A stretch of DNA of 64,000 bases from assembly GCA_964473825.1 (NCBI GenBank), contig CAYYQL010000006.1:32001-96000 (forward strand), read 5' to 3'. Position 1 is the stretch's first letter. Each line of letters starts with the position of its first letter. Positions 28,942 to 41,190 of this stretch are shown here, piece after piece. Under the pieces are notes generated by a model. That model made no database searches and had not been told where the DNA came from. It worked only from the letters and a program-made list of their open reading frames with translations. The position numbers and the translations under genes are program-made. The DNA comes from an uncultured archaeon (GTDB taxonomy: Archaea > Asgardarchaeota > Thorarchaeia > Thorarchaeales > Thorarchaeaceae).

Positions 28942-29078
28942 TGGTGGACCGGACGTGATTTGAACACGTGACCTCTTCCAGTTTGGAAGTCAGGCTAGTC
29001 CTTGACAGCTGCCAAGGAAGCGATCTATATCCCTGTGGCCTCAAGAATGAGGCTACAACCGGGCTAATCTACCGGCCC
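28942..29078 (-). tRNA. tRNA-Ala(GGC) with two introns (D-loop 29058-29028; canonical 37/38 29009-28981)
   Basis: Removing 31 and 29 nt gives a 77-nt cloverleaf with G3:U70, TTGGCAT loop, TTCAAAT and CCA; BHB-like junctions. Confidence 0.9.
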
Positions 29079-34826: not shown

Positions 34827-34934
34827 GGGCCGATAGTCTAGCCCGGCTATGATACCGCATTGACATAAGTCATTGATTTCCAATTTCTTTCAAAGGTGCG
34901 GTGGTCGCTGGTTCAAATCCGGCTCGGCCCACCA
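34827..34934 (+). tRNA. tRNA-Val(GAC) with a 30-nt canonical 37/38 intron (34866-34895)
   Basis: GGGCCGA/TCGGCCC, CCGCA-TTGACA^...^G-TGCGG; strict BHB (TTGA/TCAA helix). Confidence 0.92.
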
Positions 34935-40834: not shown

Positions 40835-41000
40835 TGGTGCGCTCGCCGGGACTCGAATTCCCGACCACATTCGAGACTGAATGCAGTTCCCGGCTCCCGA
40901 TTGCATTCGGAGTGAATGCAATTGCCGGATCCGTGGCAGGGATCCATCATAGCCCCTTAGTCAATACCCCAAAAATTGGAGTATTATAGACAACGAGCGC
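40835..41000 (-). tRNA. tRNA-Gly(GCC) with three non-canonical introns (14/15: 40986-40957; 48/49: 40923-40894; 53/54: 40888-40858)
   Basis: Removing 30, 30 and 31 nt gives a 75-nt cloverleaf GCGCTCG..GATCC-CTGCCAC-GGATC-CGGC-CCGGG-TTCGAGT-CCCGG-CGAGCGC-ACCA. Confidence 0.9.
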
Positions 41001-41190
41001 TCGAGAAACAGTCGAGGCAGTATCGGTTTTAAAGGTTACCAATAGGTTCCAATTCTCCACTGGCTATCAGTCTTTAAACATGTCCCCACTTCAGGAAATC
41101 AGTCCAAATTTGAGTCCCGGCGGATGCATCATTCTTAATTTGATTTAATATCTTTTTAATCAGGGGATCAGTGTGACGACCCAGAGAGTA

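Follow-up and report, generated by a model that had tools for sequence, protein, structure and literature searches.

Background

Transfer RNA genes interrupted by several non-canonical introns have been described in the Atabeyarchaeia and Freyarchaeia (PMC11291895), and a census of 90 Asgard genomes has reported repeated intron gains and an enrichment of BHB motifs, leaving open the route by which the introns arrive (bioRxiv 10.64898/2026.10.13.758758). In the same census, copying between tRNA genes was found for only 1.5% of the introns, and its main text, in which the string 'thor' does not occur, does not name the Thorarchaeota (bioRxiv 10.64898/2026.10.13.758758). The splicing endonuclease of Asgard archaea is reported to be an (alpha-beta)2 EndA with a broad-specificity L1 loop (Kaneta et al. 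2018, PMC5829648), and order-dependent ('nested') BHB introns are known from archaea, as cited in PMC3728597. [quoted passage not shown]

The gene that we describe, a tRNA-Gly(GCC) gene, resembles the published Asgard cases in having several short BHB introns, in the prevalence of non-canonical sites in the D-arm and T-arm, in being missed by standard annotators, in the repeated gain and loss of introns among relatives and in the presence of two EndA paralogues in the host. It differs from them in that the host belongs to the Thorarchaeota and in that two introns of a single gene, lying 5 nt apart, are clear paralogues.

A tRNA-Gly(GCC) gene with three introns

The window, i.e. the whole stretch of 64,000 nt of DNA that was analysed, carries on its minus strand, at 41000-40835, a tRNA-Gly(GCC) gene with three introns of 30, 30 and 31 nt. 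These are placed at sites 14/15, 48/49 (in a 4-nt variable loop) and 53/54, with none at 37/38. All parts of the gene lie on the minus strand. Exon 1 (41000-40987, 14 nt) covers positions 1-14, namely the 5' strand of the acceptor stem, U8, U9, the 5' strand of the D-stem and A14, and has the same sequence as the 5' end of the intron-free orthologues. It is followed by intron 1 (40986-40957, 30 nt), which has a relaxed BHB, and by exon 2 (40956-40924, 33 nt; positions 15-48), which comprises the rest of the D-arm, the GCC anticodon arm and the variable loop CGGC (4 nt), and is nearly invariant across 27 aligned orthologues. Intron 2 (40923-40894, 30 nt), of the HBh' type, separates exon 2 at site 48/49 from exon 3, which consists of just the five nucleotides CCGGG (40893-40889; positions 49-53). 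These form the 5' strand of the T-stem, pair with CCCGG (positions 61-65) in the ARAGORN cloverleaf and are invariant across all orthologues. Intron 3 (40888-40858, 31 nt), which is a paralogue of intron 2, interrupts the gene at 53/54 and leads into exon 4 (40857-40835, 23 nt; positions 54-76), with the T-loop UUCGAGU, the 3' strands of the T-stem and the acceptor stem, A73 and an encoded CCA.

When joined, the exons yield a 75-nt tRNA-Gly(gcc) that ARAGORN folds into a normal cloverleaf; the unspliced locus was missed both by ARAGORN and by the Rfam tRNA model. The first-pass annotation had already named the three intron sites, the lack of an intron at the canonical site, the 5-nt exon CCGGG at 40893-40889 and an Asgard-type host. 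Scripted cutting reproduces the coordinates, with the orthologues fixing the boundaries, the 5-nt exon is recovered at the same position, and the orthologous loci do belong to Candidatus Thorarchaeota.

Upstream of the gene, an A/T box with the sequence CTTTAAAA can be read directly on the minus strand at 41027..41034, its centre about 30 nt upstream of tRNA position 1, and a similar A/T box, for instance CTTTTTAAC, lies upstream of the gene at orthologous loci. We consider this archaeal TATA-like box a putative promoter element. The flanking genes, coding for an aminotransferase and an acyltransferase, are ordinary metabolic neighbours, and their inspection for a mobile-element context revealed no integrase near the locus.

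Comparative evidence for the boundaries of the gene

Orthologues were collected by BLAST of the 166-nt locus against 60 relatives and by pattern scans of species genomes and metagenomes, which together gave 30 distinct orthologous Gly(GCC) genes. Nine of the 30 are intron-free and 75 nt long, and these equal the predicted spliced product except for two to three bases, which are either paired acceptor-stem changes or T-loop bases; two of them score 53-54 bits with RF00005. At sites 48/49 and 53/54 any slide of the boundaries alters the spliced product. For intron 1, cuts at 13/14 and at 14/15 yield an identical product, and it is the BHB register that picks 14/15. This register, a cut after the second base of each 3-nt bulge, was calibrated with the tRNA-Val(GAC) gene of the window, whose intron is canonical, and agrees with the published definition.

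Recursive stripping of BHB motifs from selected genes gave many alternative products that ARAGORN also accepts as tRNAs. Since so many alternative splicing solutions are valid, a motif search alone is not decisive, and the boundaries rest on the intron-free orthologues. A model with only two introns, entailing either a 9-nt T-loop or a shifted T-stem, was rejected, as it breaks the register of the acceptor stem and the intron-free orthologues have a canonical T-arm. We are close to certain that the gene and its intron structure are as described.

Gene copy number and splicing enzymes of the host

The host assembly is a thorarchaeotal draft of 3.27 Mb in 103 contigs that is 95.7% complete and has only 33 RF00005 matches. 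The check that this is the sole Gly(GCC) gene, suggested in the course of the earlier annotation, was carried out with a hairpin-pattern scan and BLAST on this 95.7%-complete assembly, and the locus is the only copy found. BLAST with the spliced product matches this locus alone, revealing no second Gly(GCC) gene in the assembly, and the locus holds the sole anticodon-arm hairpin in the genome that has a YUGCCRN loop and a tRNA 3' end downstream. One further candidate, at C39:10325-10431 (-), was labelled 'Gly(gcc)' by ARAGORN with introns allowed; it is actually a tRNA-Pro(UGG) whose D-arm and anticodon arm are separated by a non-canonical intron of 30 nt. As this case illustrates, intron-aware callers can assign a wrong anticodon in this genome.

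Because only this Gly(GCC) gene was found, the decoding of GGC and GGU would, within the limits of a draft assembly, depend on it, and it must therefore be spliced efficiently. We infer from the comparative record that it is a functional and expressed gene of the Thorarchaeota genome. The need of the whole proteome for GGC/GGU decoding would then rest on a gene unseen by ordinary annotation and on three splicing events.

The host genome encodes two EndA paralogues of 188 and 221 aa, each with the domains PF01974 and PF02778. The best PDB match of one is chain 3p1z_B of the A. pernix EndA (3e-42), and that of the other is the M. kandleri EndA 5x89. We take the paralogue resembling 3p1z_B to be the catalytic alpha subunit. 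RtcB and archease are also encoded. The host is predicted from these genes to possess both an EndA able to cut non-canonical sites and the RtcB ligase, and the enzymes acting on the tRNA-Gly(GCC) precursor would presumably be EndA, RtcB and archease.

Structure of the introns

The central helix of intron 1 consists of just 3 bp (G10, U11 and C12 with GAC), bounded by 3-nt bulges and accompanied by an intron hairpin of 8-10 bp. Three of the four possible central pairs are formed in the window gene and in 9 of the 11 orthologues, with U9 left unpaired. Among the 11 sequences, changes on both sides are seen at seven of the eight pairs of the hairpin, and in the folding model the pair probability of the central helix is 0.75-0.84 in most contexts and about 0.5 after the removal of intron 3. 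Intron 1 is missing from an orthologue of the same genus (L002) and present in another orthologue (L004).

In intron 2 the central helix is formed by U42, C43, C44 and G45 with the intron segment CGGG, and two bases of the anticodon stem are thus borrowed. It is flanked by the bulges GC/A and AG/C (cut at the stroke) and by a 9-bp hairpin, without an outer exon helix. All four central pairs (U42-G, C43-G, C44-G and G45-C) form in each of the 17 sequences, the partner of U42 being G in 14 and A in the remaining three, so that it pairs in every sequence. Compensatory changes are found at seven of the nine hairpin pairs across the same number of sequences.

Intron 3 pairs C49, C50 and G51 with CGG, to which a fourth position is added, and has a 9-bp hairpin that is 100% paired in the 17 sequences, with compensatory changes at two of its nine pairs. 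The state of the fourth position depends on intron 2. In the raw transcript the base 5' of C49 is G (40894), and once intron 2 is out it is C48 (40924). In 17 of 17 genes intron 2 ends in a purine, A or G, which never pairs with the opposite G, so that a purine-G mismatch in the raw precursor gives way to a C48-G pair and the central helix goes from three to four of four pairs. In the window gene the helix reads GCCG/CGGG before the removal of intron 2 and CCCG/CGGG after it; the base letters bear out the earlier claim that CCCG/CGGG becomes complete only after intron 2 has been removed. An outer helix of 3 bp, and with it the full hBHBh' motif, likewise appears only at that stage.

When introns 2 and 3 are considered jointly, 99.3% of the cells are paired and nine pairs show compensatory changes, a level of covariation that none of 500 shuffles reaches; sliding the partner strand lowers the pairing to 25-46%. 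Each of the three introns has, on the exon side (h) or the intron side (h'), a flanking helix of 2 bp or more, in the form of an intron hairpin of 8-10 bp with compensatory changes, and the 75-nt product restores the cloverleaf, as holds for BHB tRNA introns. On comparative sequence grounds, all three inserts are conserved, structured introns of the BHB type, with intron 1 falling in the relaxed class.

Order of intron removal

The two downstream introns were compared in a protein-free nearest-neighbour folding ensemble with 37 C parameters and no tertiary structure. In this model, over 17 orthologues that are close relatives and do not amount to 17 independent tests, the conformer bearing the intron 3 BHB costs 5.0 kcal/mol (range 3.6-6.7) as long as intron 2 is present and 0.8 kcal/mol (range 0.7-1.5) once it is removed, and the drop is seen in every one of the 17. 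The modelled pair probability of the central helix of intron 3 is 0.00 with intron 2 present and 0.42-0.49 once it is removed. The conformer bearing the intron 2 BHB shows the opposite trend in the same model and the same 17 orthologues, with a mean cost of about 3.2 kcal/mol when intron 3 is present and about 6.6 kcal/mol when intron 3 is removed first (the intron 2 value of L004, which is distorted by a forced mismatch, is to be ignored). Formation of the intron 2 central helix requires the melting of two pairs of the strong 6-bp anticodon helix, and its modelled probability is only 0.06-0.14, going to 0.00 after intron 3 removal.

These models lead us to prefer an order in which intron 2 is removed before intron 3, to which we assign a probability of roughly 0.55. 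An incomplete central helix cannot be an absolute block, because intron 1, with its 3-of-4 geometry in 9 of 11 orthologues, must still be spliced. We propose that the order would be a kinetic preference and no absolute requirement.

The pathway that we envisage would begin with the transcription of a precursor of 166 nt or more with three BHB introns, from which an (alpha-beta)2-type EndA would excise the introns and RtcB, with archease, would join the exons to give the 75-nt tRNA. Intron 1 would fold and leave independently. Introns 2 and 3 would be copies of one ancestral intron placed 5 nt apart, in each of which the same 3' segment, CGGG followed by two purines, would pair with a YCCG exon site. 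Intron 2 would leave first, bringing C48 next to C49, so that intron 3 would acquire its full central helix of 4 bp as well as its 3-bp outer helix; intron 3 would be cut once this intron 2-dependent completion has taken place. By this reasoning, if the two introns are removed at different times, the 5-nt exon would at each step stay covalently joined to a longer fragment.

It is quite possible that there is instead no fixed order, the broad-specificity (alpha-beta)2 EndA cutting each BHB whenever it is transiently formed. The match of C48 to the last G of the CGGG segment of intron 3 would then reflect the exon sequence at 53/54 in an ancestor without intron 2. Being invariant, the C48-G pair is uninformative about selection. 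In 9 of 11 orthologues a central helix of 3 bp is presumably enough for intron 1 to be spliced, and in the window gene, before any splicing, intron 3 already has three of its four central pairs, its 9-bp hairpin and two outer pairs beyond the mismatch. An EndA with the L1 loop does accept relaxed motifs (PMC5829648). Against such indifference to order stands the modelled difference of about 4 kcal/mol for intron 3 with and without intron 2, which recurs in 17 of 17 orthologues and is matched by an opposite trend for intron 2. Furthermore, the multi-intron pre-tRNAs of the red alga Cyanidioschyzon merolae are processed in an order that tracks calculated BHB stability (PMC3728597).

The reverse order, with intron 3 leaving first, the T-arm then forming and intron 2 being removed last, is improbable. 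Without intron 3 the transcript would regain its T-arm and come closer to the shape of a tRNA, and the intron 2 BHB motif contains no base of intron 3; however, the modelled intron 3 BHB exceeds the ensemble by about 5.0 kcal/mol as long as intron 2 is in place, and with intron 3 removed the cost of the intron 2 BHB rises to about 6.6 kcal/mol, with a central-pair probability of 0.00. That the locus is no working gene at all, being a pseudogene in decay, an artefact of assembly or a gene bounded differently (e.g. two introns and an odd T-loop), is very hard to credit: it is missed by standard tRNA finders, and many alternative BHB-like removals give ARAGORN-accepted tRNAs, but the comparative sequences already contradict such a reading, in that the exons show either invariance or covariation, covariation is also seen in the intron helices, the same architecture recurs in 15 species genomes and 11 metagenome contigs, the intron-free orthologues set the boundaries and no other Gly(GCC) gene was found in the assembly. 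The locus offers a simple substrate for testing whether an archaeal EndA imposes a splicing order.

Introns 2 and 3 as a co-occurring pair

Alignment of introns 2 and 3 of the window gene reveals identity at 24 of 31 bases, and in shuffles constrained to preserve the hairpin pairs and the fixed ends the observed score is reached only twice in 5000 trials. The similarity is present in all 17 genes. Both introns end in CGGG followed by two purines, and each follows an exon site of the form YCCG-G-N; given this shared end and these exon sites, one and the same intron segment is able to form a central helix at both of them. Judged by their sequences, introns 2 and 3 are paralogues. No further copy of either intron was found elsewhere in the genome. 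A search for concerted evolution of the two introns gave no clear signal, the similarity score being 12.6 within a gene and 11.6 between genes.

The allele with introns 2 and 3 is present in 15 of 86 genomes of the family, distributed over 7 of 16 genera, and 7 of the 15 also have intron 1; 11 independent contigs from metagenomes contain this allele as well. Scans of 185,579 species representatives, which required exact exon sequences, detected no genome with intron 2 alone or intron 3 alone, and the same kind of scan detected 12 genomes with both. The similarity of intron sequences is slightly higher within genera (0.845) than between genera (0.800; permutation p ~0.03), which is consistent with a mainly vertical inheritance in which the pair was lost repeatedly. 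The physical linkage of the two introns, which lie within 66 nt, could by itself explain their joint loss. With regard to origin, a simple tandem duplication of the unit CCGGG plus intron was considered and set aside, as it would leave five extra exon bases. For this reason, which is one of reasoning from sequence, it seems less likely than the insertion of an intron copy into a similar site 5 nt upstream.

A more far-reaching and, in our estimate, doubtful interpretation is that introns 2 and 3 form an interlocked pair. One intron would have been copied into a neighbouring site offering the same 4-base complement (YCCG/CGGG); efficient removal of intron 2 would require that intron 3 is still in place, intron 3 would turn into a perfect substrate only when intron 2 has left, and the two could be kept or lost only as a unit. 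If true, the pair would be a concrete and testable case of how a tRNA intron arrives in an Asgard genome, by copying guided by exon-intron pairing, and would represent an obligatory two-step splicing programme around a 5-nt exon.

Intron turnover among relatives and in other tRNA genes

Among the relatives, the Gly(GCC) gene is found in several states: intron-free, interrupted by intron 1 alone, by the pair of introns 2 and 3 or by all three, and with introns at about four other positions. The latter, in the orthologues L027, L030, L024, L026, L028, L029 and L011, comprise an intron of 33 nt at 37/38 and others close to 41/42, close to 21/22 and on the 3' side of the T-loop. Counting 14/15, 48/49 and 53/54, at least seven intron positions are thus in use for this gene within one family, and these intron states constitute a compact natural experiment. 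High intron turnover has likewise been reported in other Asgard lineages (bioRxiv 10.64898/2026.10.13.758758).

Several observations on other tRNA genes are recorded here in their own right. The window contains two more tRNA genes with inserts. One, of 137 nt, reads as a tRNA-Ala(GGC) gene at 28942-29078 (-), which corresponds to C6:60942-61078, with two inserts of ~30 nt in the D-loop and the anticodon loop, and which is missed by both ARAGORN and Rfam. The other is a tRNA-Val(GAC) at 34827-34934 (+), whose intron, 30 nt long and at the canonical site 37/38, forms a textbook hBHBh' motif. The tRNA introns of the window cluster at 29-31 nt. Elsewhere in the genome, other long tRNA genes were noted at C2:36855-37050 (196 nt), C17:42254-42419 (166 nt), C2:134844-134991 (148 nt), C2:170608-170740 (133 nt) and C10:8102-8228 (127 nt). 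The ARAGORN list for the genome lacks, among others, Asn, Trp, Glu-CTC, Thr-GGT, Thr-TGT and Pro-GGG, and these isoacceptors are presumably hidden by introns.

A tRNA-Gly(CCC) gene at C2:219355-219449 (+) has an insert of ~21-23 nt, of approximate boundaries, at or near 53/54. This insert ends in CGGG and two bases and can pair with an exon CCCG, i.e. it shares the site and the central helix of Gly(GCC) intron 3. In one relative, the 5' part of tRNA-Gly(GCC) is present a second time in truncated form (L056; G022:C22:23550-23950), with intron 1 and a canonical 37/38 intron, and ends after about position 41. This copy lies on the strand opposite to the complete gene, which has introns 2 and 3, at a distance of 3.4 kb, and may have been left behind by recombination or by an integrated element. 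In one relative, tRNA-Gly(TCC) and tRNA-Gly(GCC) (L057, G011:C10:76400-76800, and L010) each have an intron of 47-48 nt at the same D-loop site; the two introns look alike by eye, which suggests a sharing of introns between isoacceptors.

Comparison with known systems

The multi-intron and nested BHB genes of the Thermoproteales (Sugahara et al. 2007 RNA 13:671, 2008; via PMC3728597 and PMC4090602) likewise have up to three BHB introns in a tRNA gene, and there too, according to these later papers, one motif is completed only after another intron has been removed. In comparison with the nested motifs as the later papers describe them, the dependence seen here concerns one outermost central pair and the outer helix, and not a fully hidden motif. 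The intron transposition families of the Thermoproteales (Fujishima et al. 2010; via PMC4090602) are similar in that, as that later account has it, related introns occupy different sites where the exon builds a BHB. The copy described here differs from those families, as they are there portrayed, in that it is placed in the same gene, at a neighbouring site and with the same complement, UCCG and CCCG both pairing with CGGG. In Cyanidioschyzon merolae (Soma et al. 2013, PMC3728597), three-intron pre-tRNAs also have a preferred order that follows calculated BHB stability. That organism is a eukaryote, its order was shown experimentally and its motifs fold independently, whereas the present host is an archaeon, the order is a prediction and the motifs are coupled via shared flanks.

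Multi-intron Asgard tRNAs, order-dependent BHB motifs and the copying of introns have thus all been described already, and the general picture is unchanged. The paralogous, co-occurring pair bears on the question, posed by the 2026 Asgard census, of how introns arrive. What is specific to this gene is the combination of a paralogous pair of introns lying 5 nt apart, their strict co-occurrence and their reciprocal dependence in the folding model.
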